A stretch of DNA of 64,000 nt from a virus (lineage: Duplodnaviria > Caudoviricetes): positions 8,495-72,494 of IMG/VR virus record IMGVR_UViG_2844225640_000006. One strand, 5' to 3'. Below the pieces are notes generated by a model. It saw only the letters and a list, made by a program, of their open reading frames with translations, did no database searches and was not told the DNA's origin. Shown here one piece after another: positions 2,921-62,752 of the stretch. The translations under genes and the position numbers were made by a program. The stretch's first letter is position 1. Each line of letters begins with the position of its first letter.

Positions 2921-3919
2921 CTAAAGCTCCGCGTCTAATCCATACACCCTGCCAATTATAAAGGCGTCCCCTGCCGCTGCTGACGTGATTGTTATGCGAC
3001 CACCATAAGGACTGGGGTTATCAAGGACGTTATTATTTATGTTTGACGTACTGCCTGCACTAATCAAGGTAGCGGTCGGAGTTGCCTGCATCTCGGGCCA
3101 GTTCAACGAATTATGGGCAAACTGTCCTGATGCTGTCGAAATGAAGCGGACGTTTGCTTGTACCCTTTGATAATACCGCTGACACAATGCCAACTCCTGC
3201 TGGATGTGGCGCGGCGAAAATGGGTCATCTTCGGCAGTGACGTCCCCTTCGACAAGAGACACCCGGGCAATCTCGATTGTGCCAGATTGCACCCCGACCC
3301 CTTCGGTCAAAGCGTCATAAGATGAACCACCCGAGAAGATGAAATTAAGCTGTAGGCTGTTATCGTAATTGGTGCCGAGGATCAGATCATCGATTGCCGG
3401 CACGTCGACCACATGGGTGAACTTCTGCCATGTCCTGGCCATCGTGTGTTTTTTGCCTGCGAAAGATGCCGAGGGGGACGGAGTTCCGCCCGTCCCAGGA
3501 ACTCGATAAAATGCTGAAGCCATCTTCAGCCCGGACAACGAGGCACGAGCCCAAAACGAAAGCGTAAAGCGCCGACCCGCATAAGCCCGAAGCCCCTCCA
3601 CCCTCTGATATGCGGTGACAACATCGCCAGACACGGCACCGCCTGCAAAGGTCACCGAAACATAGCCAAGCCCGCCGAGAGGCTTCCCCTCGTGAGGATC
3701 GCTGCCGCCGGGTAGGAACTTCCCCTGCAAAACCGTCATGGTGCTGCCGGATATTATAAACCCCCACCGATCAACCGAGTGGTAGCCGTCCAAGGTCTGC
3801 GATGATCCGCGCTGCCATATATCAAAGTCGCCATTGATGATCTTGTTGCGATACGCTCCAAGGTCCGCCGTTATCCCACGCCCTCGGCCCGCCTGCGAAA
3901 GATCGAAAGCTTTACTCAT
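2921..3919 (-). CDS. Short tail fibre / receptor-binding paralog
   Basis: RNKIINGDFDIWQRG, ELALCQRYY and terminal DAEL shared with 4477-6642. Confidence 0.8.
   Translation of the reverse strand: MSKAFDLSQAGRGRGITADLGAYRNKIINGDFDIWQRGSSQTLDGYHSVDRWGFIISGSTMTVLQGKFLPGGSDPHEGKPLGGLGYVSVTFAGGAVSGDVVTAYQRVEGLRAYAGRRFTLSFWARASLSGLKMASAFYRVPGTGGTPSPSASFAGKKHTMARTWQKFTHVVDVPAIDDLILGTNYDNSLQLNFIFSGGSSYDALTEGVGVQSGTIEIARVSLVEGDVTAEDDPFSPRHIQQELALCQRYYQRVQANVRFISTASGQFAHNSLNWPEMQATPTATLISAGSTSNINNNVLDNPSPYGGRITITSAAAGDAFIIGRVYGLDAEL
3198..3266. repeat. 69-bp exact direct repeat, copy 1 (copy 2 at 4826-4894)
   Basis: Identical DNA encoding RVSLVEGDVTAEDDPFSPRHIQQ in both fibre genes. Confidence 0.9.
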
Positions 3920-6884: not shown

Positions 6885-9170
6885 TTACGGATACGACACA
6901 CTCGTCGCCGCAGAGACGAGGAAGATCGCCAGCGGTGACGTGGTGCTGTAAGTCGTCTTGCGCTTCCACGACGTTACTGCCGTACCGAGCGTCCAGGTGA
7001 AGACTCGACGGATCGAGCCATCGGCCTGCACTTCGTCGGTGACAGCCGTGGCGGCGGTTTCAGTACCGTAGCCGGACCCGGTCAGGATCGAACAGGACAG
7101 GTCATGGTTGACCTCGTCGTAATGCTCGAGCACGAGGATCTCGATGATCTCCGTCACCGGCCCCGGCGCCACCCGTTCCTTCGTGATGTGCACGCCATTC
7201 GTCCGAGGACGAGATACCGTGACATTCGACTGTCCGAGGTTGATGCCCGGCATAAGCTCGGTGGTGCCAAGGAGGACCATGCGAGCGTTGATGTTGGCAG
7301 GAAGATTGAACAGAGGCGAGGCACCGCTCGCAACCGCTTCAATAGTATGCCAGACCGAACCAACCTGAACTTCGTACGAGATCTCGCAGCCATCCGGCAC
7401 GACCTGCTTGGTGAGAAGGTCGATACCGCAGATGCCACCCGAGAGATTCCACGCCGTCAGGTTGACAGTCACACGAGGAGCGCTGAACTGTGCGACGAGG
7501 ATCTCGAAGCAAGCGTCCAGAGAAATGCTACCCTGCGACCAGAGGCCGTCCGTCGATACGAAGAACGATCCCTGCGCGTACTTGTTGTTTTCCGCCACCG
7601 CCAGCCAGTGGTTGCCGGAGGTGATGACGAACCAGCCGTAACGCTTGCCGCCTTCAAGGAAGACCGGTTCGATTGCGAACTTGGTTGCAATCGGGTGTAT
7701 CTTCAGGTCAGCCGCAGCGACTGTTGTAACAGCGAGACAGCTTGCGTAGTTCGGTGCGCCGTTCTCAAACAGCTCGCAGAGAGCCATGCGCACGTCACCG
7801 CCGCCAGCGTCAACGCGGCTGAAGTAAAGGTTCACACCCGTCACCCAACCGGAGCGAGGCATCATGAAGGTGTTGCCTGCCACCTGTCCGGTGTAGGACG
7901 CCTGCACGATTGTTGCCGCCCAATACGGCTCTTCGTAGGTGTCGTAGAAGATCTGGCGAGCGCGCATGATGTAATGCGCAGGGCCACCGGCATCCTGAGT
8001 GAACTCGACGTTATAGGCCGTGCCGTCATTCTGATAGAAGATGCCCTTCGTCTGGTCGTACCGCCCGGTGCCCCACCAAGCTGCGTTGGTGCAGACGAGA
8101 AACGGGTCGCCATAGCGGATGCGAGTCTTCGAGATCGTCTTCAGCGTGTACTCGATGGTCTGAGAACCACCGTTTGCAAGGGCGTGTTCCGTCGACTTCG
8201 ACGTGATCGTGATCAGGTTATTCTCGGTATAGCGTGGCAGAACCATGCCGCCCGTCGATACCTGAATGCTGGTGTCGGACGGTGTGAGAAGGCCGAGGGT
8301 GATCTGCGCCGAGTTATCGTCAGCAAAGCGGATACCTTCTTCCACCTTCGTCACTGACTGCAGGTGTTCGAGATCGCTATCCGTTTCGTCGAGGAAGTAA
8401 TCCGACTTCGAGTAGGACTTACCTTCCGGCATCCCGGTCATTTCCACCACGCGAGCGAGCTGCTCGAGGAGGTAGATCTGCATCTGGCGTGACAGCTTAT
8501 CAGAGTTGGATGCGACCAGCTTGGACACGTCGGTCTTGAGACCTTCGACGACCGGCTGCGTTTCATCCATCCAGCCTTCTAGCACCTGCACGCGGGAGTC
8601 CAGCGACCGCATCGTGGTGATGCGATTGTCCGTGCTCTGCTCGACCAGTACGATTTCCGTCGAGGAGAGTGTCACCCAGGCGATGACCGTATTGGCACTA
8701 TCGACCACCGGCTTCGACGGGGAGGGTGCCTGATCGCCGAGCTGGATTGCCACGTTGACCTTGCGCCATTCAACGGTCGCTGTCGGCTGCGGGTCCACTT
8801 GAGGCGGGTAGACCGAACCATTGACCACGAAATCGCGAGGCTCGGTCCCGTCATTCGCCGTCTGTGCCTGAAGCAGGATCGCAACAATGCGGCGGTTGCC
8901 GGAGGTCGGCATGTGCGCCAGGAGATTGAGAACCGTCGCGTTGTCGCCGCCCGTGAAGAGCTTCCCGTCCTTGAAAAGGATGACAGGTGTTTCAACCGTG
9001 ACCTGCGTCGTTGCCGTCTTGGCGACCGTTGCGCCTGAGTAGCAAGCATCGAGTGCGCCGCTGACTGCTGCCGAGATCAAGGTATCCATGGCATCGCGAG
9101 GGAACTCAGCGAGGTTCTCAAAATCGCTGAGGGTCGCGTTCTGGTTGGCGGTAAAGCGGGCAATCTTCAT
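6885..9170 (-). CDS. Baseplate/tail structural protein
   Basis: 761-aa beta-rich ORF between gpI and the fibre; call by position. Confidence 0.6.
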   Translation of the reverse strand: MKIARFTANQNATLSDFENLAEFPRDAMDTLISAAVSGALDACYSGATVAKTATTQVTVETPVILFKDGKLFTGGDNATVLNLLAHMPTSGNRRIVAILLQAQTANDGTEPRDFVVNGSVYPPQVDPQPTATVEWRKVNVAIQLGDQAPSPSKPVVDSANTVIAWVTLSSTEIVLVEQSTDNRITTMRSLDSRVQVLEGWMDETQPVVEGLKTDVSKLVASNSDKLSRQMQIYLLEQLARVVEMTGMPEGKSYSKSDYFLDETDSDLEHLQSVTKVEEGIRFADDNSAQITLGLLTPSDTSIQVSTGGMVLPRYTENNLITITSKSTEHALANGGSQTIEYTLKTISKTRIRYGDPFLVCTNAAWWGTGRYDQTKGIFYQNDGTAYNVEFTQDAGGPAHYIMRARQIFYDTYEEPYWAATIVQASYTGQVAGNTFMMPRSGWVTGVNLYFSRVDAGGGDVRMALCELFENGAPNYASCLAVTTVAAADLKIHPIATKFAIEPVFLEGGKRYGWFVITSGNHWLAVAENNKYAQGSFFVSTDGLWSQGSISLDACFEILVAQFSAPRVTVNLTAWNLSGGICGIDLLTKQVVPDGCEISYEVQVGSVWHTIEAVASGASPLFNLPANINARMVLLGTTELMPGINLGQSNVTVSRPRTNGVHITKERVAPGPVTEIIEILVLEHYDEVNHDLSCSILTGSGYGTETAATAVTDEVQADGSIRRVFTWTLGTAVTSWKRKTTYSTTSPLAIFLVSAATSVSYP

Positions 9171-27362: not shown

Positions 27363-28268
27363 GTGAATATCATGACCAATCCTCAATCCGTTTCCTCGGT
27401 CCTCGCCAGCCGCGCGATGATTGTTTCCCTGTCCATCTCGCAATGGTCAGGCCGTCGCCTTGACCGGCAGATCACCGACGAGGTCAACCAGAACCACGGC
27501 GCTGCCGCCGACGCTGGCCGCTACAACAAATTGCTCCTCCCGAAGGAAGCATTGGCGGAAATCGTATCCATCGTCGGCGAAACCCGCTCGGACTTCCTCA
27601 AACGCACCTTGCCTTGGATGGACAACGGTAGCCGCATCATGGCAAGCGATGCATATTTGCAGCATATGTCATGGGTGCGCGGTCAGGTCGCCAAGTTCGA
27701 CCGGGCTGTCGACAAATTCCTCGCTGACTACCCGCAATATGTGGCCGATGCCCGTGTCCGCCTGAACGGCATGTTCAAGGACGACGACTACCCCGACGCT
27801 CAAATCTTGCGCAGCAAGTTCGGCGTTGCCTGCAAGGTTCTTCCGGTCCCCACCTCGGAAGACTTCCGCGTGGACATGAGCCAGGCACAAGCTGACCGCA
27901 TCCGCGAGGAGATCGAACAGCAAGTCTCCGACGCCACCACGGAAGCGGTGCGTGATGTTTACCGCCGCGTGGCAGACGTCACAGGACGAATGGTCGAAAG
28001 GCTCAACGCCTACAAGCCAGCCGGTCGTCCGGGTGACAAGACGGAAGGCGTGTTTCGCGACAGCCTTGTCGAGAATGTGCGCGATCTGATTAGCGTCTTG
28101 CCCGCGCTCAACATCATTGGCGACCGCGAGCTTTCCGCCATGGTCGAACGGCTCAAGCCATTGGCCGAGCACAATGCGTCGACCCTGCGCGATAGGCCGG
28201 AGATCCGCCGCGACGTAGCCGATGAGGCTCAGAAAATCCTCGACAGCGTCTCCGGCTTCTTGGCCTGA
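27363..28268 (+). CDS. Helical protein, DUF3150-like
   Basis: LSISQWSG, KLLLPKEAL, TLPW, YPD motifs; same operon as MoxR/vWA genes. Confidence 0.55.
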   Translation: MNIMTNPQSVSSVLASRAMIVSLSISQWSGRRLDRQITDEVNQNHGAAADAGRYNKLLLPKEALAEIVSIVGETRSDFLKRTLPWMDNGSRIMASDAYLQHMSWVRGQVAKFDRAVDKFLADYPQYVADARVRLNGMFKDDDYPDAQILRSKFGVACKVLPVPTSEDFRVDMSQAQADRIREEIEQQVSDATTEAVRDVYRRVADVTGRMVERLNAYKPAGRPGDKTEGVFRDSLVENVRDLISVLPALNIIGDRELSAMVERLKPLAEHNASTLRDRPEIRRDVADEAQKILDSVSGFLA

Positions 28269-28280
28269 GACAAATAGAAT

Positions 28281-28494
28281 TGCAGGAGCGAGGCGCCCGC
28301 TCCTGCATTTGGCGTGGCATGGCTTGGTAGGGCGCGGCGGGGCAGCGCATGGCAGGCATGGCATGGCGCGGCGTGGTATGGCTCGGCTTGGCGCGGCAGG
28401 CTAGGCGCGGCTAGGCGAGGCGCGGCGAGGCAAGGCGCGGCGAGGCCGGGCAGGCTCCCACCCAAAAGCCGCCGCTCTCTGAAAAGGGAGCGGC
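28281..28494 (+). ncRNA. GGY-NN pentamer array 1 (three units: 8, 8, 10 pentamers) with flanking hairpins; candidate guide RNA
   Basis: 5-nt periodic GGC/GGT+NN from 28311 to 28457; GGCA delimiters at 28351, 28395, 28449; 10-bp 5' stem 28281-28307; GAAA-loop stem 28471-28494. Confidence 0.75.
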
Positions 28495-28581
28495 ACCTCA
28501 AAGTTCTCCTCTTCACCGGGGAGCCTTTTGAGGTGTCAGAACGGCACTACGAACCCAATGCAATCATGCATCCAAGGAAAC

Positions 28582-29265
28582 ATGTTCATGGCAAAAGCAG
28601 CAACCAAAGTCGAAACCGGAATCACTCTTCCGAAGCTCAACATCCAGCTCATGGAAGTGGTGGTCATCGGCGACTCCCCGCTCATCGTCCACGCTTGGTC
28701 TGAAAAGGCCAAGAAGGAAATGCTGGACAAGCAGTTGAAGGTAGCGAAGGGCGCTCGTGAAGCGAAAGACCCTGTCGCAGACTTCCAGAACACTATGTAT
28801 CGCTTCGAAGACGGCGGTCACGGCTTCCCGTCCATCGCCTTCAAGGCGGCAGCTGTCACCGCTGGCACATCCGTTGCGGGACTCACCAAGATCGCAGCGA
28901 GACAGGCGTTTCATATGCTCGGCGAGAACGCCGACATTGCCGGTGCTTTTGATGGGGCGCAGTCCCGCACGAACCTCGTGCGAATCCTCGGCTCCGAACC
29001 CCAGATGCGTGAAGACATGGTCAGGGTCGGAATGGGCACGGCAGACATCCGCTACCGTGCGGAATACCCGGATTGGCACGCAAAACTGCTCGTTCGCTAC
29101 AATGCAAACGTGCTGTCCGAAGCACAGATTCTCAACCTCATCAACGTGGCAGGCTTTGCTGTCGGCGTCGGCGAATGGCGCCCCGAAAAGGACGGCAATT
29201 ACGGCATGTACCATGTCGCCACCGAGAAGGAACTGAAGGCGCTTGGTGTGCAATCACCGGGCTGA
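28582..29265 (+). CDS. Stand-alone Cas7/RAMP-like protein
   Basis: VVVIGDSPLIVH, FPSIAFKAA, and C-terminal Gly-rich loop GVGEWRPEKDGNYG in RAMP order; AAGGA SD. Confidence 0.7.
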   Translation: MFMAKAATKVETGITLPKLNIQLMEVVVIGDSPLIVHAWSEKAKKEMLDKQLKVAKGAREAKDPVADFQNTMYRFEDGGHGFPSIAFKAAAVTAGTSVAGLTKIAARQAFHMLGENADIAGAFDGAQSRTNLVRILGSEPQMREDMVRVGMGTADIRYRAEYPDWHAKLLVRYNANVLSEAQILNLINVAGFAVGVGEWRPEKDGNYGMYHVATEKELKALGVQSPG

Positions 29266-29271
29266 AACAAT

Positions 29272-29422
29272 ACAGGGTCGCGTTGCCATCGTGGCCCTGT
29301 TTAGGCGAGGTATGGCAGGCAAGGCAGGGCTTGGCTGTGCGAGGCAGGGCGCGGCGGGGCAAGGCCGGGCAGGCTCACCCACCAGCGGCCAAGGGGCAGC
29401 ATTCAACCGCCCCATTTCTTTT
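29272..29422 (+). ncRNA. GGY-NN pentamer array 2 (one 10-pentamer unit); candidate guide RNA
   Basis: Periodic 29304-29376; GGCA at 29314 and 29368; 5' stem 29272-29300; 3' GGGGC/GCCCC stem plus T run. Confidence 0.75.
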
Positions 29423-29448
29423 CAACAACCAACAGAGGAGTAGCTGCA

Positions 29449-29994
29449 ATGGTAAAGATTGCATCTTACGGCTTCGCAGAGGGTTCCCGTTTCCAGAAAG
29501 GCGCGAATACTTCCGCCCCCGAACTGGTCGGTGAACACCTTGAGACTATCCGCAAGGCGAAAGACGGTAAGCTCACACCCGACGACGTGGTGGCCGACGC
29601 TCGTAATCCCAACTCTCCGCTGCATTCGTTCTTTGAGTGGGACGATTCAGCAGCAGCTCATGAGCACCGGCTTCGGCAGGCTCGCCAGCTGATCCGCACG
29701 ATCGTTGTGCGCTATCAGGAAGTCGAGTCCAAGGAACCGATACGGGCCTATGTTAATGTCCGCTCACCCAACAGTGACAATGGGAATGAACCGGACAGCG
29801 ATGAACCACGTCAGTATTACACCGACACGATCGAAGCGCTCTCTGCCCCTGACATGCGAAGGGCCGTGCTTCTCCGGGCAAAGTCCGAGCTTGACGCTTG
29901 GCGCAAGCGATATGCCGACCTCGAAGAATTGTCCATCGTCGTGCGGACCATCACCAAGATGTCCGAAAAAGTCGGCGAACTGGCTGATGCTTGA
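29449..29994 (+). CDS. Partner protein of the RAMP-like locus (phage hypothetical)
   Basis: LTPDDVVADARNPNSPLHSFFEWDD..A..HRL.QARQLI motif; GAGGAG SD; flanked by arrays 2 and 3. Confidence 0.75.
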   Translation: MVKIASYGFAEGSRFQKGANTSAPELVGEHLETIRKAKDGKLTPDDVVADARNPNSPLHSFFEWDDSAAAHEHRLRQARQLIRTIVVRYQEVESKEPIRAYVNVRSPNSDNGNEPDSDEPRQYYTDTIEALSAPDMRRAVLLRAKSELDAWRKRYADLEELSIVVRTITKMSEKVGELADA

Positions 29995-30010
29995 ACCCAA
30001 ACAAATAATT

Positions 30011-30118
30011 GGCGTGGTGGGGCAGGCAGGGCTTGGCATGGCAGGGCTTGGCTTGGCCCGGTGCGTCTCGTTTCGGCAGGCAAACACGGGGATTCGTTCG
30101 CGGCTCCCCTTTTCTTTT
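30011..30118 (+). ncRNA. GGY-NN pentamer array 3 (one 10-pentamer unit) plus terminator; candidate guide RNA
   Basis: Periodic 30011-30083; GGCA at 30021 and 30075; GGGGA..TCCCC-TTTTCTTTT terminator 30088-30118. Confidence 0.75.
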
Positions 30119-30147
30119 CAGCAATCATGCAAACTAAGGAGACGAGC

Positions 30148-30561
30148 ATGAGTGTGCGCAATCTTCCATCGCCTGTTCGATTCCTCCTCATCCCGGTACT
30201 CGGCGACATCAAAGAGGAACGGTTTACGGTTGCGCCCGCCACGGTGGTTCCCCGTGCCAAACTATTGGAGCATGTGCGGACGTTCTTCGACGAACCAATC
30301 GAGCGCGTGAACGTGCTCTATCGGGGCGAGTACCGCGATATGTTCGTCGGCGAGACGTCGGCCATCAACGGTCGCCACATCCGCAATATCCGGGCGACCG
30401 AAGTCTACCGGGCAAATGCGCTGGAAAATCACTGGCGTCTCAATTCACCCGACCCGACAAAGGCGAAGCCTATCGATTTGTCGTGGACACTCGACCCTGA
30501 AATTCTACCGGCCATCTCTGGTCCGGCGGTTCTGTTCCCAGATTATCAAGTGTGGGAATAA
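30148..30561 (+). CDS. Hypothetical protein
   Basis: AAGGAG SD, ANYA hairpin. Confidence 0.65.
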   Translation: MSVRNLPSPVRFLLIPVLGDIKEERFTVAPATVVPRAKLLEHVRTFFDEPIERVNVLYRGEYRDMFVGETSAINGRHIRNIRATEVYRANALENHWRLNSPDPTKAKPIDLSWTLDPEILPAISGPAVLFPDYQVWE

Positions 30562-30800: not shown

Positions 30801-31802
30801 ATGAACCTCAAGTCCGCAACGACTCTGCTCAACCACTTCATTGACGCCGACATTCCGGCATTCATGTGGGGCCCTCCCGGCGTCGGCAAGTCCGCTTCGC
30901 TGCATCAGATTGTGACCGAGCGTAAATGGGGAATGGTGGACTTCCGCGCTTCGACCCGTGACTCGGTGGCGTTGATGGGCCTGCCTGATATTTCCGGCGA
31001 GACCACCCGCTGGAAAGTGCCGGACGAATTTCCGCAGGCCGAACGTGACGGCGAGGAAGGCATCCTGTTTCTCGACGAACTGAACGCCGCGCCACCTTCG
31101 ATGATGGCGGCAATGTTTGGCCTGGTCCTTGACCGCAAGGTCGGCGACTACGTGCTGCCCAAGGGCTGGCGCGTAGTTGCGGCTGGCAATCGTCAGGCTG
31201 ACCGTGCTGCGGCACAGCGTATGCCTACCGCTCTCGCTAACCGCTTCGCTCACATCGACGTCGATGCAGATACGAGCGCCGGACATGACAATGTCCACGT
31301 CGAATACTTCAATCAGATCGGCGTTGATCCGCAGCTCATTGCCTTCCTTCGGTTCCGTCCGGCACTGATCCATTCGATGCCGAAGAATGATGAGCGTGCG
31401 TTCCCAACGCCCCGTTCGTGGGAACAGGCGGCGAAGATCCTGAATCTTCCGACGGCACTCCGCCTGCAGGGTGTATCCGCTATCGTCGGTGAAGGCGCTG
31501 CGGCTGAACTGGAAGGATTCCTTCGTGTTTACCAGAACTTGCCTTCGCTAGATCTGGTACTCGCCAATCCGAACAGCGCGCCTATCCCGGAAGACCCGGC
31601 GGCTCGCTTTGCAATCTCCGCTGGCCTTGCCCGTAAGGTTGATGAGCGGTCTTTCGACAACGGCATGGCTTACATGCAGCGCTTGCCTCGTGAGTTCGAG
31701 ATTATGATGTGCGTCGATGCGGTGCGTCGTGAACCGAAGCTCAGCCATACGCAGACGTTCACTTCGTGGGCCATGAGAAACCAAGACGTCACTCTAGGCT
31801 GA
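30801..31802 (+). CDS. MoxR-like AAA+ ATPase
   Basis: GPPGVGKS, LFLDE, AAGN, ALANRF, PTPRSW. Confidence 0.9.
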   Translation: MNLKSATTLLNHFIDADIPAFMWGPPGVGKSASLHQIVTERKWGMVDFRASTRDSVALMGLPDISGETTRWKVPDEFPQAERDGEEGILFLDELNAAPPSMMAAMFGLVLDRKVGDYVLPKGWRVVAAGNRQADRAAAQRMPTALANRFAHIDVDADTSAGHDNVHVEYFNQIGVDPQLIAFLRFRPALIHSMPKNDERAFPTPRSWEQAAKILNLPTALRLQGVSAIVGEGAAAELEGFLRVYQNLPSLDLVLANPNSAPIPEDPAARFAISAGLARKVDERSFDNGMAYMQRLPREFEIMMCVDAVRREPKLSHTQTFTSWAMRNQDVTLG

Positions 31803-32831: not shown

Positions 32832-33989
32832 ATGAAAACCGAAGACAAGATCCTCGCCGCACAGACGTCGCTACTTTGGGACCAGCCATTCTTTGGCGTC
32901 CTCATGCTCCAGCTTAAAAAGGTGCGGGTGGATGACCCGAAGAAGGTCGATACGATGGCGACAGACGGCCGTCATCTCTTCTACCACCCGCCCTTCGTCG
33001 ATGAGCTGAAGAAGGACGAGCTGGTTTTCGTGCTGGCCCATGAGGTCATGCACAACGCCCTGGAGCATCACATCCGACGCCAGTCCCGTAAGCCCGGCCG
33101 CTGGAACGATGCCTGCGACTACGCCATTAACGGCGAGCTGGTCGAATGCAAGGTCGGCAAGATGCCAGAGCGCGGCCTGCTCGAGGCGCGCTTCACCGGT
33201 CTTTCAGCCGAGGAGATCTACCGTATCCTCGACGACGAGAACAACGGCGACGACTCCGCTGAAGGGCAGGGCGATACCGGTGGTTGCGGTGGAACGATGG
33301 ATGGCTGCGCACAGCACGACGAGGCAGCCAAGGCCGAGCTGCGTGCCGAGATGCAAACGCAGATCAGGCAGGCTGCCATGACCGCCAAGGCTGCGCAGGC
33401 TGGTAAACTTCCGGCTGGCGTGCAGCGTATCATCGACGAGCTGCTCATGCCGAAGGTCGACTGGCGGGCTGTTCTCCGCCGCTTCATCGACGAGTCCAGC
33501 ACCCGTGATTTCTCATGGTCGAGGCCGAACCGTCGCCTGCTTCCGCTTGGTCTGGTTACTCCGGGCACAGTTTCGGATGGCGTCAGCCATATCGTGATCG
33601 CGGTTGACACATCTGGCTCGATCGACGAGCCCACGCTCAATGCCTTTGCTGCCGAGGTGCGGGGAGCATTCGAGGAAGGCTCTGTCGACAAGATCGACGT
33701 GGTCTACTGCGATGCAGCCATCAACCACACAGAGCAATTCGAAATGGGCGACGAGCTGTTCATCCGTGCGGTAGGCGGGGGCGGCACTCGCTTCTCGCCT
33801 GTCTTCGAATGGGTGACCGAGAAAGCAGCCGACACCAAGCTGGTGATCTACCTAACAGACTTGCTCTGCAATGACTTCGGCGACGAGCCGCACTGCCCGG
33901 TTATCTGGGCGCACTATGGAACGAAGAGCCAATTTCAGCAGCTCAGCCCCAACGTTCCGTGGGGTGAGTGCGTACACATCGAGCCTTAG
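32832..33989 (+). CDS. DUF2201-type metallopeptidase-vWA protein
   Basis: TMATDG, HEVMH, N.ACD.AIN, MIDAS DTSGS, GGGGTRF, YLTD. Confidence 0.9.
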   Translation: MKTEDKILAAQTSLLWDQPFFGVLMLQLKKVRVDDPKKVDTMATDGRHLFYHPPFVDELKKDELVFVLAHEVMHNALEHHIRRQSRKPGRWNDACDYAINGELVECKVGKMPERGLLEARFTGLSAEEIYRILDDENNGDDSAEGQGDTGGCGGTMDGCAQHDEAAKAELRAEMQTQIRQAAMTAKAAQAGKLPAGVQRIIDELLMPKVDWRAVLRRFIDESSTRDFSWSRPNRRLLPLGLVTPGTVSDGVSHIVIAVDTSGSIDEPTLNAFAAEVRGAFEEGSVDKIDVVYCDAAINHTEQFEMGDELFIRAVGGGGTRFSPVFEWVTEKAADTKLVIYLTDLLCNDFGDEPHCPVIWAHYGTKSQFQQLSPNVPWGECVHIEP

Positions 33990-36330: not shown

Positions 36331-37491
36331 ATGAGCAATATCGACAACGTCACCGCCACTGTTTCGACTGCTTCTCTCAACTACTCGGTTTTCAGGAAGG
36401 CTATTGAGAACGCCTGCAAGATCGTCGAACGTCGCAACATCATCCCCGTTCTCGATACCGTCCTCATCAAGGCGACGACGAATGGCGTCTATGTTCTCGG
36501 CACTGACCTCGACATCTGCACCACGACCTTTGTGCCGGGCAATGTATCCAAGGACTTCACCGCTCTGGTCGATGCTCACAAGCTCAAGGCCACAATGGAT
36601 AAGGTGAAGGATGCTCCGGCCATCAACTTCGCCATGTCGCAGAAGAAGCTCACTGCCAACATCGGGAAGCTGAACCTGACATTGAAGCAGGATATTCCAG
36701 CCGAAGATTTCCCTGAAAGCCACGCCTTCCGGGACCGGTTGAGTGAGTCAAACCATACGTTCACGCTGCCGTCAGCCACGCTGCTCAAAATCCTCAACAA
36801 GGTCCAGTTCGCTATCTCCACGGAAGAGACGCGGTACTATCTCAACGGCGTGTATATGCACGTCATCGAGAACTCGCACCACATCACCTTCGTCGCCACG
36901 GACGGCCACCGGCTGGCTCGATATGAGATGCCTGCGCCAGAAGGCGCAAACGGTATCCCCGCTGTCATCATCCCTCGCAAGACAATTGTTGAACTGATGC
37001 GGCTCCTCAAGCGCAAGGGCTGCCCGGAAGAAACGATGATCACGGTTTGCAAGACCGGCGTTCGGTTCACTGTCGGCGAGGACGAGACCGTGGACAGCAA
37101 GGTCATCGACGGACAATTCCCGGATTACACCCGCGTCATCCCTATGAACAACGATCACCACGCCACGATCTATCCGGCTTCCTTCATTGACGGCGTCAAG
37201 CAGGCCAGCGCGGTTCTCCCTTCAAAGGGCGGCTCGGTCTCGGTCAACTTCCTGCGGGGGATAGCCTCTCTCACGTGTCGTGATGTCGACTTCGGTGAAG
37301 CATCCGTCGATGTCTCGATTGAGAACGAGCGGTCGCTGGAGATCGGATTCAACGCCCAATACCTGATCGACATCCTTTCGCACGTCGATGGTGAAGCGAA
37401 GTTCATGCTCATGGGCGCTGGAGATCCGGTCGTCATCCGCAACTCGGACGATGATTACCTGACCTTCGTTCAGATGCCGACGCGCATCTAA
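36331..37491 (+). CDS. dnaN: Phage-encoded DNA polymerase III beta clamp
   Basis: RNIIPVL, TDLD, EETRYYLNG, ATDGHRL, IIPRK, IDGQFPDY.RVIP, GFNAQYL, MP.R. Confidence 0.93.
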   Translation: MSNIDNVTATVSTASLNYSVFRKAIENACKIVERRNIIPVLDTVLIKATTNGVYVLGTDLDICTTTFVPGNVSKDFTALVDAHKLKATMDKVKDAPAINFAMSQKKLTANIGKLNLTLKQDIPAEDFPESHAFRDRLSESNHTFTLPSATLLKILNKVQFAISTEETRYYLNGVYMHVIENSHHITFVATDGHRLARYEMPAPEGANGIPAVIIPRKTIVELMRLLKRKGCPEETMITVCKTGVRFTVGEDETVDSKVIDGQFPDYTRVIPMNNDHHATIYPASFIDGVKQASAVLPSKGGSVSVNFLRGIASLTCRDVDFGEASVDVSIENERSLEIGFNAQYLIDILSHVDGEAKFMLMGAGDPVVIRNSDDDYLTFVQMPTRI

Positions 37492-38549: not shown

Positions 38550-38630
38550 CCCATAATCCACACACAACAAGCGGGGCACTTCGGTGCCCCGTCCATCATC
38601 CCGCCAAACATGGCAACCACGGAGATTGAA

Positions 38631-40208
38631 GTGAGCACACTCGTACCCACTGCAACGATCGAACAACTCTGCGCTTATCGCGATGAAGCAATTCGTTTGT
38701 ACGAAGAAGCATTTGAGAAAATAGCCGAAGCATCGACCGCCGTCACGAAGGCAGGCTTGATGTGGGAGGCCGCTTCTCCCGGTAAGCCGAGCCGCCATTA
38801 CGACGGCGCCGAGGAAGTCAAGGAGTTCTTCCGGGCCGTCAACCTGCCTGACCGTGACCGCTATCTGCGCACCGCGCGCCGTCTCATCGACGTTACCGTA
38901 TGGACCCACGTCATCGACATCGCTGGCATCGAACAGCTCATGGACATGCAGGCCAAGAACGAGCTGCGCGACCAGATGAAGTATGTCCCGGAGCGCACCG
39001 GCCGCAATGGTGAGATCATCAATCAGGATGAGATCGACCGCATGCTGCCGCCCGTCACCCCGGAGAACATCTACGCCACGCTCGAGCGATTCCAAGGTGA
39101 TGCCGAGATGATCTTTCGGCGCGGCATCGTCAATGTCTTCACGAAGTTGGACCGTCGCTTCCGTTCGCACGACGGATTCAAGGTCGGCTCGCGCATGATC
39201 ATCGATTACCTGCTGCGCAGCAGCACGCATCTGTATGGTGATCGCGCAGATATGCTGACCGATGTAGAGCGAACGTTCCTCGTGCTCGACGGCAAGTCAG
39301 CGAAGGCCAGCTATGCGGGCATCGTCGAAAAGATCAACCGCGAGAACCCAGGGAAATGGAATCAAGCAGTGCAGTTTGAGGTGGTTTCCGAATACTTCAA
39401 GGTCCGTATCTTCAAGAACGGCAACGCCCATCTCTGGTTCAGCCGCAAGGATCTGGTGAAGAAGGTCAATGAGATCCTGGCCGACCACTACGGCGAGGTG
39501 ATCGGCGACGGGATGACGAAGGAGGAAGATCCTCTCAAGAACATCAAGACCACACCGGCTCGCTACTTCGGATTCTACCCCACGTCAGACGCGACTGCCG
39601 AAAAGGTTATCAGCCATGTACGCCTGCTCCAGCGAAAGGACGAGCCCCAGATACGCATCCTTGAGCCGTCGGCCGGGACCGGCAACCTTGCCCGACGCTG
39701 CCTTAGCACCCCGGCTGCCCTCGATAAATGGTCCGGCGGCCGCGACCGCTACATAGATCAGTACCGCATGGACAATGTGGTCGACTGTGTAGAGGTGCAG
39801 CCGCACCTAGCTCACCAACTCGAGGCACAGGGCGTCTACGGCCGCGTAGTCTGCGCCGATTTCCTGTCGCTCCGGCCGGATTCGTCTCGCCTCTATGACA
39901 GAGTAGTCATGAACCCGCCCTTCGACCGGGAACGGGACATCGACCACGTCGTGCATGCCATCCAGTTCCTCAAGCCGGACGGGCAGCTCGTCGCCATCAT
40001 GTCGGCCGGGACTGAGTTCCGGCAGACCGCCAAGTCCATAGCCTTCCGCAAGATGATGGAAGACATGGGCGCAGAATGGACTGATCTACCGCCCAATTCC
40101 TTCTCGGACGTGGGCACAAACGTGAACACCGGGTTCATCTCGGTCTGGAAGAACGGACGTAAGAAAACCGGCCGCTACGACAGACCGACTTGGCCGAAGG
40201 TGGGATAA
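38631..40208 (+). CDS. DUF4942-like domain fused to an adenine DNA methyltransferase
   Basis: FKNGNAH, FYPT, LEPSAGTG, MNPPF; GGAG SD favours GTG at 38631. Confidence 0.85.
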   Translation: MSTLVPTATIEQLCAYRDEAIRLYEEAFEKIAEASTAVTKAGLMWEAASPGKPSRHYDGAEEVKEFFRAVNLPDRDRYLRTARRLIDVTVWTHVIDIAGIEQLMDMQAKNELRDQMKYVPERTGRNGEIINQDEIDRMLPPVTPENIYATLERFQGDAEMIFRRGIVNVFTKLDRRFRSHDGFKVGSRMIIDYLLRSSTHLYGDRADMLTDVERTFLVLDGKSAKASYAGIVEKINRENPGKWNQAVQFEVVSEYFKVRIFKNGNAHLWFSRKDLVKKVNEILADHYGEVIGDGMTKEEDPLKNIKTTPARYFGFYPTSDATAEKVISHVRLLQRKDEPQIRILEPSAGTGNLARRCLSTPAALDKWSGGRDRYIDQYRMDNVVDCVEVQPHLAHQLEAQGVYGRVVCADFLSLRPDSSRLYDRVVMNPPFDRERDIDHVVHAIQFLKPDGQLVAIMSAGTEFRQTAKSIAFRKMMEDMGAEWTDLPPNSFSDVGTNVNTGFISVWKNGRKKTGRYDRPTWPKVG

Positions 40209-61300: not shown

Positions 61301-61525
61301 ATGAAAACATCAAATTCAGCAACAGCGAATGAAAATCATGGCGGCTCTTCGGGCCGCCGCATCCGTCCGAGTGAGCACGCTCTTCGCATTGCCCTGCGCA
61401 CAGCCAAGGCTGAAGGCATGGTTGTGGATAAGCTGTGCGTGACGGGTGGGTATATCGAAATCCATTTCGGAGGCGTTGAGGTCGAGTCGTCCGATGGAAA
61501 TCATGGAGACCTCGATAAATGGTAG
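61301..61525 (+). CDS. Small protein upstream of the integrase (excisionase candidate)
   Basis: Overlaps the integrase start; function inferred from position. Confidence 0.4.
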   Translation: MKTSNSATANENHGGSSGRRIRPSEHALRIALRTAKAEGMVVDKLCVTGGYIEIHFGGVEVESSDGNHGDLDKW

Positions 61526-62601
61526 AGGCTGCTATGAAAGTAGAGTTCCCCGGTCTTCTGAAGGAAGCCATGGCGTCCGGGCATATCCGGTATCGCGTCC
61601 GCCCGAAAGGCGACAAGACAAAGCGCATACGAATATTCTGCGAGCCGGGTGACGACGACTTTCAACGGCAGTATCTGATCGCTCGCTCAGGGGACCAGCC
61701 CAAGCCACTGCAGAAAGCTTCCGAAGTCGCGAAGCCGAAGTCAATTGGATGGCTGGTCTCCAGCTATATGGAATATCTCGAAGCGAGGGTGGTCGCTGGA
61801 ACTTCCAGCGGCAAGACCCTGAAAAAGAAACGCAATCTTCTCAACCGTCTGCTGACGAATCCTGATCGCGTGATGCTAATTCCGCAGGAAAAGTTATTCG
61901 AGATGCAGGACAAGATGGGATCGACGCCAGCCCAGGCCGACGCTTTCATTGAAGCCGTCGGTGTCATGTATGATTGGGCGAAGAAGCGGAAGCTCGTAAG
62001 CAGCAACCCGGCAAGGGGCATCGATAAGGTGTACGTCAAGGGAGACGGGGCTACTCCGTGGAAGGCGGCAGATGTGAAGGCATTCTTCGCCAAGCACAAG
62101 CCGGGCAGCAAGGCGCACGTTGCCATGTCGGTCCTACTGTGGACCGGTTGTCGCGTCGAGGATCTCACCGTTCTCGGCCGGAAGAACGAATGCGTCATCG
62201 AGGGCGTGGAGGCCGTCCGTTGGCAGCCGAGCAAGAAGGGATCTTCCGAAGTGACCGTTCCGCTTCTGCCTGCCCTGAAGACGGCCACCCGCGCGCCTAC
62301 GGTTCAAGGCGGCACCTATGTTCTTGGTCGTGGCGGCAAGCCCTTTGCAAGCGGTGACAGTATGTCGGCGATGTTTAAGCGGTGGTGCAAGGATGCCGAC
62401 CTGCCGACGCTGTCAGCTCACGGCGTTCGCAAGGGACTCGCTGAACTGTTGGCCGAGCAGGGCTGCAGCCAATATGAGATCATGGCTATCCTCGGCCATT
62501 CCGAAGCAAAAACATCCGAGGTTTATACCCGGAGAGTCGAGCGTTGGAAGCTGGCTCTTGGCGCCATGGAACGAGTAGATGTGTCCCACGCATGGTCTTG
62601 A
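61519..62601 (+). CDS. int: Tyrosine integrase
   Basis: TGCR, K, HGVRK, LGH, Y catalytic set; adjacent to tRNA. Confidence 0.92.
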   Translation: MVEAAMKVEFPGLLKEAMASGHIRYRVRPKGDKTKRIRIFCEPGDDDFQRQYLIARSGDQPKPLQKASEVAKPKSIGWLVSSYMEYLEARVVAGTSSGKTLKKKRNLLNRLLTNPDRVMLIPQEKLFEMQDKMGSTPAQADAFIEAVGVMYDWAKKRKLVSSNPARGIDKVYVKGDGATPWKAADVKAFFAKHKPGSKAHVAMSVLLWTGCRVEDLTVLGRKNECVIEGVEAVRWQPSKKGSSEVTVPLLPALKTATRAPTVQGGTYVLGRGGKPFASGDSMSAMFKRWCKDADLPTLSAHGVRKGLAELLAEQGCSQYEIMAILGHSEAKTSEVYTRRVERWKLALGAMERVDVSHAWS

Positions 62602-62667
62602 TGTGGGACACCTCAAAAACTAAGGTGTTGATTTCTTGGGAGAAAACCACTGCATAAGAGTGGTAAA

Positions 62668-62752
62668 TGGTGCGGTCGAGAAGACTCGAACTTCCACGGG
62701 TTGCCCCACAGCGACCTCAACGCTGCGCGTCTACCAATTCCGCCACGACCGC
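62668..62752 (-). tRNA. tRNA-Leu (anticodon GAG), 85 nt, CCA encoded; probable att site
   Basis: GCGGTCGTGGCGGAATTGGTAGACGCG-CAGCG-TTGAGGT-CGCTG, long variable arm, GTTCGAG, CGACCGCACCA. Confidence 0.97.

Follow-up and report, generated by a model that had tools for sequence, protein, structure and literature searches.

A probable VIPR locus with staggered, tail-less guide arrays in a temperate myovirus-type prophage

The systems known as VIPR (Viral Interference Programmable Repeat) are RNA-guided DNA silencers first described in preprints of 2026. They form a newly described class of RNA-guided DNA recognition that has been proposed to be older than CRISPR. The DNA compared with them here, referred to as the window, is a stretch of 64,000 nucleotides (positions 8,495 to 72,494 of IMG/VR virus record IMGVR_UViG_2844225640_000006, Caudoviricetes), and the region in question lies at window positions 28311-30079. 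In all likelihood, this region is the VIPR locus of a temperate myovirus-type prophage and works by a mechanism like that of the phage-borne SUSP1 system.

A VIPR locus combines vrRNAs of 9-16 GGY/NN repeats with two genes, vipr for a minimal RAMP protein (Vipr) and the accessory gene vap (10.64898/2026.04.26.720920). Vipr polymerizes with one protomer per repeat, the GGY is flipped out, and the NN binds double-stranded DNA (10.64898/2026.04.26.720920, 10.64898/2026.04.26.720927). Each NN pairs with two target bases and every third base is skipped, which is called the '1 nt skip rule' (10.64898/2026.04.26.720920, 10.64898/2026.04.26.720927). The rule was discovered by searches with 0-3 wildcard bases and was confirmed for SUSP1 by binding and by GFP repression. 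The skipped bases were mostly codon wobble positions, and the targets were rival phages, prophages, and satellites. The set described there comprises 664 loci, seven types, and six vap families (10.64898/2026.04.26.720920).

Array anatomy of the locus

The order of the locus, all on the + strand, is vrRNA array, vipr, vrRNA array, vap, vrRNA array. This gene order agrees with that of SUSP1, a type II system (Vipr, vap1, and four vrRNAs) whose guides likewise flank the vipr-vap pair on one strand; both systems are phage-borne. The three arrays of GGCNN pentamers (28311-28455, 29304-29374, and 30011-30079) are intergenic. GGCAGGC serves as their punctuation and consists of a GGCAG unit and the following GGC unit with one G in common. 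Each array contains one block of exactly 10 variable NN followed by a constant final AG, and each of these blocks is bounded by two GGCAGGC marks at a spacing of exactly 54 nucleotides. Array 1 additionally carries two 9-unit blocks (28311-28355 and 28355-28399), and a 3-unit stub opens array 2 and likewise array 3. The components of the locus are as follows.

28311..28355, + strand: vrRNA 1a, 9 GGYNN units; NN GT AT TT AG GC GG AG AT, then AG; lacks an upstream GGCAGGC boundary; one CGC scaffold
28355..28399, + strand: vrRNA 1b, 9 units; NN AT AT GC GT AT TC TT GC, then AG; first and last G common to its neighbours (staggered, 1-nucleotide overlap)
28399..28453, + strand: vrRNA 1c, 11 units, scaffold GGC throughout; NN TA GC TA GA GC GA AA GC GA CG, then AG; the first 10-mer of the initial annotation
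28582..29265, + strand: vipr, encoding a 227-amino-acid RAMP-fold protein homologous to SUSP1 Vipr; phrog_4652
29304..29318, + strand: 3-unit stub of array 2; NN GA, AT, AG; GGCAGGC boundary at its end
29318..29372, + strand: vrRNA 2b, 11 units; NN AA AG TT TG GA AG GC GG AA CG, then AG; one TGC scaffold; the second 10-mer of the initial annotation
29449..29994, + strand: vap, encoding a 181-amino-acid accessory protein; phrog_15946; conserved motif SPLHxxFEWDDxxAAxxYRLxQARxLIR
30011..30025, + strand: 3-unit stub of array 3; NN GT, GG, AG; GGCAGGC boundary at its end
30025..30079, + strand: vrRNA 3b, 11 units; NN AG TT AT AG TT TT CC GC TC TC, then AG; the third 10-mer of the initial annotation

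The last three variable units of vrRNA 3b have decayed scaffolds (GGT, GTC, and GTT). The three 10-NN strings had been given in the initial annotation, and both direct reading and script parsing found them correct to the letter.

The arrays stand out clearly from the rest of the window. The pattern GGCNNGGCNNGGCNNGGC (four units, ≤1 mismatch) matched 35 times, as opposed to a mean of 0.98 and a largest count of 4 in 100 shuffles, and all but one of these matches (34/35) were on the + strand within the three arrays. A 5-unit pattern matched the full 72.5-kb provirus record 28 times forward and 0 times in reverse, with 0 control matches. A coding pentapeptide repeat was excluded, because the 4-nucleotide GGCA units disrupt every reading frame. 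Rfam gave no match, either for the whole window at gathering scores or for 28200-30200 at E ≤ 10, and a full-text literature search for 'GGCNN' returned unrelated papers only.

Loci of the same clade display the same grammar. Among 4681 units (distinct guides among 539 parsed), the scaffold was GGC in 77.4% and GGT in 10.9%, and GGY made up 88%. The NN pairs are hypervariable: entropy in these units was 1.89 and 1.99 bits at the two N positions, the NN are entirely different in relatives whose Vipr is 71-80% identical, and the exact guide 3b is contained in no other IMG/VR contig. In other words, the locus displays the tandem YNNGG (GGY/NN) repeats of at least 4 units beside vipr, with conserved GGY and hypervariable NN, that characterize VIPR. 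Guide lengths in the clade peak at 9-11 units, within the published 9-16, and guides of about 9-12 GGY/NN pentamers occur both here and in SUSP1. The SUSP1 scaffold is mostly GGT, whereas here it is mostly GGC.

How the guides are joined corresponds to a published description. In staggered vrRNA arrays, neighbours overlap by 1 nucleotide such that the end of one is the start of the next (Fig. S18 legend, 10.64898/2026.04.26.720920), and the GGCAG/GC junction here yields this 1-nucleotide overlap. The locus is very probably a VIPR system with a less-studied, staggered architecture; it is not a new kind of system.

By homology to SUSP1, the arrays would be transcribed and processed, and each GGY would be bound by one Vipr protomer. 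Neighbouring protomer pairs would flip out the GGY and expose the NN pair between them, and the 8-10 NN pairs of a filament would anneal to double-stranded DNA of the form NNxNNx..., with the 1-nucleotide skip extended to this clade. The bound DNA, expected to belong to rival phages, prophages, or satellites, would then be transcriptionally silenced.

The Vipr homologue and the accessory gene

Evidence that gene 28582-29265 is a homologue of SUSP1 Vipr comes from sequence comparison and from the modelled fold. The gene has no Pfam or NCBIfam family match. Searched alone against PDB, the protein gave a single sequence match, to 36pp_D 'SUSP1 Vipr protein' (E 0.0014), and a family profile built from 28 sequences matched the same entry along profile positions 16-190 of 194 (E 3.9e-11). 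An hhalign comparison of the family with the SUSP1 genome gene (KT454805.2, 28474-29061, - strand) gave a probability of 97.8% and E 1.3e-12 over 162 columns. This alignment places H37, R159, and E198-W199-R200 of the family opposite H17, R138 (thumb), and D177-W178-R179 (G-loop) of SUSP1, the residues reported as the G1, G2, and Y3 contacts in cryo-electron microscopy (10.64898/2026.04.26.720927). Thus, the GGY-contact residues correspond in the two proteins. Within the family, all sequences have G195, G197, and R200, and at least 90% of them retain E198 and W199.

The AlphaFold (AF2) model of the protein has a pLDDT of 84.1. A Foldseek search of PDB with this model returned Csm3/Cas7 RAMPs as the top rows (best E 1.7e-5; 38 matches at E ≤ 0.001). 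The protein thus has the features of Vipr, a minimal RAMP with an RRM core, a glycine-rich loop, and a thumb. The RAMP fold is also shared with the Class 1 CRISPR backbone, in which a Cas7/Csm3 filament assembles on crRNA. In both, there is one protomer per fixed RNA step and a thumb that periodically breaks the guide-target duplex (10.64898/2026.04.26.720927). However, Class 1 CRISPR pairs 5 of 6 guide bases and VIPR 2 of every 5, and in VIPR the guide itself is the repeat; the present locus is without a CRISPR repeat-spacer array and cas genes.

The nearest Vipr, at 78% identity, is in a prophage of Rhizobium leucaenae, and the prophage host is for this reason probably a member of the Rhizobiaceae. 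Phage records matching the Vipr of the window number 33, at 38-43% identity.

The second gene of the module, vap (29449-29994), likewise has no Pfam or NCBIfam family match. Its AF2 model has a pLDDT of 89.6, and a Foldseek search of PDB with it gave no row under E 0.3. VIA-align confined the match to the C-terminal helical hairpin 133-181 (Z 7.6 or less), Atlas returned viral hypothetical clusters and weak winged-helix-like rows (TM 0.33-0.39), and the best PDB match of the Vap profile had an E of 0.28.

How tightly are the repeats linked to these two genes? The DNA motif alone (GGCAGGC plus four units) found at least 119 loci in IMG/VR, so that the architecture is present in at least that many contigs. 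Among the 119 motif-found loci listed, 85 had a Vipr homologue and 80 a Vap homologue, whereas the other genes of the window recurred in 0-2 (genes were called with the arrays masked, and the calls are crude). Because the two homologues co-occur with the motif and the other window genes do not, the repeat, vipr, and vap form one module. The 26 listed loci that had neither vipr, vap, nor a DUF3150-like gene include many short ones. The search in the other direction gave a consistent picture: of 64 IMG/VR loci with Vipr relatives, 44 had arrays of at least 6 units on the strand of the gene, and none of the 64 had them on the opposite strand. Vap homologues were present in 144 of 188 loci examined. 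No Cas family was found among the neighbour genes in Pfam, PHROGs, or NCBIfam. The record is an IMG/VR provirus, and the locus displays both the minimal two-gene composition (vipr and vap, without cas genes or CRISPR arrays) and the viral or proviral context of VIPR.

Most of the low-GC Vipr relatives (IMG/VR loci of 35-48% GC; 38-50% identity) had no GGC-type arrays of at least 6 units with the finder used. The scaffold of these relatives may be GGT or a different one, or arrays may be present beyond the stretch examined.

The same GGCAGGC-punctuated GGYNN arrays are present in two cultured actinophages, Mycobacterium phage Brocalys (NC_031262.1, locus 2097-2344) and Gordonia phage Ecliptus (OP820472.1, locus 3116-3376), where they adjoin a Vipr homologue annotated as 'hypothetical protein'. 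In Brocalys, the annotated start of gp45 overlaps the array end. Since Mycobacterium smegmatis and Gordonia terrae have cultured, tractable phages with this architecture, the processing and skip rule of the clade can be tested at the bench. The window locus adds a clear prophage example from a probable Rhizobiaceae host, with chained tail-less guides and a different accessory protein.

Target searches and the skip rule

Which DNA would these guides recognize? The initial annotation had proposed a code in which two bases are read and one is skipped. This code equals the published VIPR skip rule (10.64898/2026.04.26.720920); the right recognition logic had been recovered from sequence alone. The enrichment it predicted, an excess of 9-10/10 matches over shuffled controls at one gap size, did not appear in any collection searched.

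This outcome is one of several that weigh against a SUSP1-like mechanism at this locus. No natural target of the guides was found in IMG/VR, JGI metagenomes, or 401 Rhizobiaceae genomes, collections that may not contain the rival elements. Searches of these large collections used gap 1, and the control in Rhizobiaceae was the reversed pattern. Exact 10/10 one-skip matches in IMG/VR numbered 1 for guide 1c, 0 for guide 2b, and 0 for guide 3b, and JGI metagenomes held 1 exact match of guide 1c. Both exact matches of guide 1c fall within genes of low-GC elements from other hosts; one gene encodes a reverse transcriptase and the other is a TTRAP gene. In both, the skipped base is codon position 2 and the constant eleventh unit is unmatched. 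They are judged to be chance matches because of the wrong host type, the skip at codon position 2, and the unmatched eleventh unit. About 0.1-1 match would be expected by chance (20 fixed bases, roughly 1e11-1e12 positions), a figure that is a rough estimate and not a computed control.

In the 401 genomes, which represent the family of Rhizobium leucaenae, matches with ≤2 mismatches were counted; control totals and grouping were made by hand from tables. Guide 1c matched 24 places against 19 for its reversed control and guide 2b matched 5 against 13. Guide 3b matched 61 places against 3, of which 43 are one conserved site in rpoD and 3 are one site in a Maf gene (19 of 20 bases, in three related 46%-GC genomes). 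Recurrent near-matches of guide 1c fall in host genes: 12 genomes are matched in one FGase (hutG-like) gene family, and 3 in an enolase-superfamily gene. When conserved sites are counted once, about 31 independent events stand against 35 control matches, and there is therefore no enrichment in Rhizobiaceae. For guide 3b, the reversed control probably understates chance because it is not codon-like.

Searches closer to the loci gave similar results. In 1.4 Mb of VIPR-flanking DNA with arrays masked, the best matches of 416 unique clade guides were distributed like those of shuffled guides, with no excess whether the gap was 0, 1, 2, or 3, and two Brocalys guides had 0 exact matches in IMG/VR. 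The initial annotation had also suggested searching this prophage, where no match was better than shuffles: the five window guides reached at most 13 of 16 or 15 of 20 in the whole provirus, scores equalled by 148-500 of 500 shuffles. This absence of self-targets agrees with the VIPR report, in which VIPR guides are described as lacking self-targets (10.64898/2026.04.26.720920).

The differences from SUSP1 point the same way. SUSP1 guides are separate and each ends in a pseudoknot tail of roughly 40 nucleotides, a conserved, structured 3' tail being a feature of vrRNAs of type II, the SUSP1 / P. fulva clade. Here, the guides are chained head to tail and internal guides abut at GGCAGGC. Every guide ends in a constant GGCAG without its own structured tail because successive guides share one G at the GGCAG/GC junction. 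The sequence downstream of the final GGCAGGC mark varies from array to array and from locus to locus. Arrays of this kind, tail-less and with a shared G, would imply a mode of processing new to bench work. By the preprint's own text, small-RNA sequencing confirmed the ribozyme-interspersed and single-guide architectures only, and not the staggered one (10.64898/2026.04.26.720920). Among sequencing runs searched with sampled words of the locus, none held more than 30% of them and none was a usable RNA run. The vap1 gene of type II is also missing, as the Vap here belongs to an unrelated family: its profile aligned to SUSP1 gene 28031-28471 with an hhalign probability of 0.1%. That gene would be vap1, judging from its position beside vipr. 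The bench support for the skip rule is for type II only, and this locus is not type II.

Indirect support for a wobble-blind reading comes from the composition of 4367 clade NN. The best fit was to sense codon positions 1-2 of genes in the same loci (Pearson r 0.65), as opposed to r -0.40 to 0.23 for the other five phase/strand models and an any-phase model; the mean log-likelihood was -2.74 as opposed to -2.81 to -3.11. The fit is imperfect in that N4 has less C than codon position 1 does, and RNA-level constraints could partly explain the composition, which again counts against the proposed mechanism.

One alternative accepts a VIPR-family ribonucleoprotein but holds that the staggered, tail-less clade reads its targets otherwise (by another skip length, on RNA targets, or with part of the guide), in which case the three predicted target strings would be wrong. 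Gap 1 was enriched in no search, the accessory protein is unrelated to SUSP1 vap1, and the Vipr guide is reported to pair with RNA as well (10.64898/2026.04.26.720927), all of which would suit such a reading. However, the residues that flip the GGY and set the geometry are conserved, the NN composition resembles that of codon positions 1-2, as would be expected of a one-skip, wobble-blind code, gaps 0, 2, and 3 did no better than gap 1 in the local tests, and the same skip rule was applied to types III and V in the VIPR preprint (10.64898/2026.04.26.720920). Another reading rule is thus unlikely. Homology, array anatomy, gene linkage, and the literature, but not target enrichment, lend partial support to the skip rule as the putative code of this locus.

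The rpoD matches deserve separate consideration. The initial annotation had read the reverse complement of array 3 as codon prefixes of (D/E)(D/E)AG(K/N)(K/N)L(I/M)(K/N)L, and this was confirmed. Read as its reverse complement, guide 3b agrees with rpoD region 1.1 (codons DDAVKKMIKL) at 18 of 20 NN bases, with all skips on the wobble base. The site was identified as rpoD from six translated loci; one of the 43 places is in a genome flagged as unpublished and was not relied on. There is no convergence of other guides on this gene: 1 of 416 clade guides (3b itself) matched the six rpoD loci at ≤2 mismatches, as opposed to 4 of 2080 shuffles. At about 0.2% per guide per roughly 3 kb of unique sequence, five guides could well match somewhere in the conserved part of a genome family by chance. 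The match is kept as a lead because it is in phase and widely conserved, and because host decoy sites have been reported for satellite vrRNAs in E. coli (10.64898/2026.10.15.759431). That guide 3b is aimed at rpoD, the gene for the host's primary sigma factor, appears quite doubtful. If it were, the temperate phage would throttle host transcription in lytic growth through VIPR, or would use a conserved host site as a decoy sink.

Cis-acting alternatives and surrounding features

Hairpins are present around all three arrays.

28281..28307, + strand: stable hairpin upstream of array 1, past the stop of gene 27363-28268; fold of 28269-28312, -19.2 kcal/mol, z -3.8; inverted repeat also listed by a separate scan
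28474..28537, + strand: two strong hairpins between array 1 and the vipr ribosome-binding site; fold of 28449-28581, -52.3 kcal/mol, z -4.35; 0/200 shuffles equally stable
29272..29300, + strand: stable hairpin between the vipr stop and array 2; fold of 29266-29305, -18.9 kcal/mol, z -4.6
29393..29422, + strand: short GC hairpin, then AUUUCUUUU (terminator-like, weak); z -1.0; not flagged by the inverted-repeat scan
30088..30118, + strand: hairpin, then UUUUCUUUU (terminator-like, weak), ahead of gene 30148-30561; z -0.1

Among the post-array stretches, unusual structure was found solely after array 1 (z -4.35).

This arrangement bears on a second alternative, in which the arrays are cis-regulatory leaders and have no target in trans. 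A multimer would bind the GGC triplets in nascent mRNA, as TRAP does, and would control hairpin and U-run elements before vipr, vap, and the next gene. TRAP is a protein multimer that reads a (G/U)AG triplet every 5 nucleotides of RNA, and a triplet plus two is also the spacing here; each array has a hairpin on one side and a hairpin plus U-run on the other, and is closely followed by a same-strand gene. However, TRAP forms a ring that works in cis on a single leader, whereas the protein encoded next to these arrays is a Vipr/RAMP homologue and the spacers carry information. Furthermore, the NN are hypervariable against a fixed scaffold, array length and position vary freely among relatives, and, of the three downstream hairpins, two do not exceed shuffles in stability. 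A role confined to leaders is therefore very unlikely.

The third alternative, that the arrays are a structural or replicative DNA feature without a guide role (a G-rich non-template strand promoting R-loops or G-quadruplexes, or a simple-repeat expansion), draws on their G-rich, strand-specific sequence in the early/replication region of the prophage, but is extremely improbable given the exact 5-nucleotide register, the defined 4-nucleotide punctuation, the 54-nucleotide block size fixed across three arrays, and their co-occurrence with two specific genes in unrelated contigs. A TRAP-like attenuator, a G-quadruplex/R-loop origin, and primase or Chi-like DNA sites were early ideas that were dropped on the Vipr match.

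The temperate myovirus-type character of the prophage that carries the VIPR locus is evident from tail sheath, baseplate, head-protease, portal, and terminase genes on the - strand, together with a replication/recombination region and an integrase beside a tRNA. The integrase gene adjoins a tRNA gene (62671-62752, - strand) at window 61519-62752, and this end is probably the attachment end of the prophage.

Directly upstream of array 1 lies gene 27363-28268, whose similarity to DUF3150 is weak (E 0.0013, short of the Pfam cut-off). This gene stands outside the conserved module, with a homologue in 1 of the 119 listed motif-found loci. Downstream of the VIPR locus, genes for a MoxR-type AAA ATPase (AAA_5) and a DUF2201 metallopeptidase/VWA protein lie near each other (30801-31802, 32832-33989). 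This pair is followed by genes for an HNH endonuclease, a DnaN-like sliding clamp (36331-37491), and a DUF4942 methyltransferase (38610-40208).

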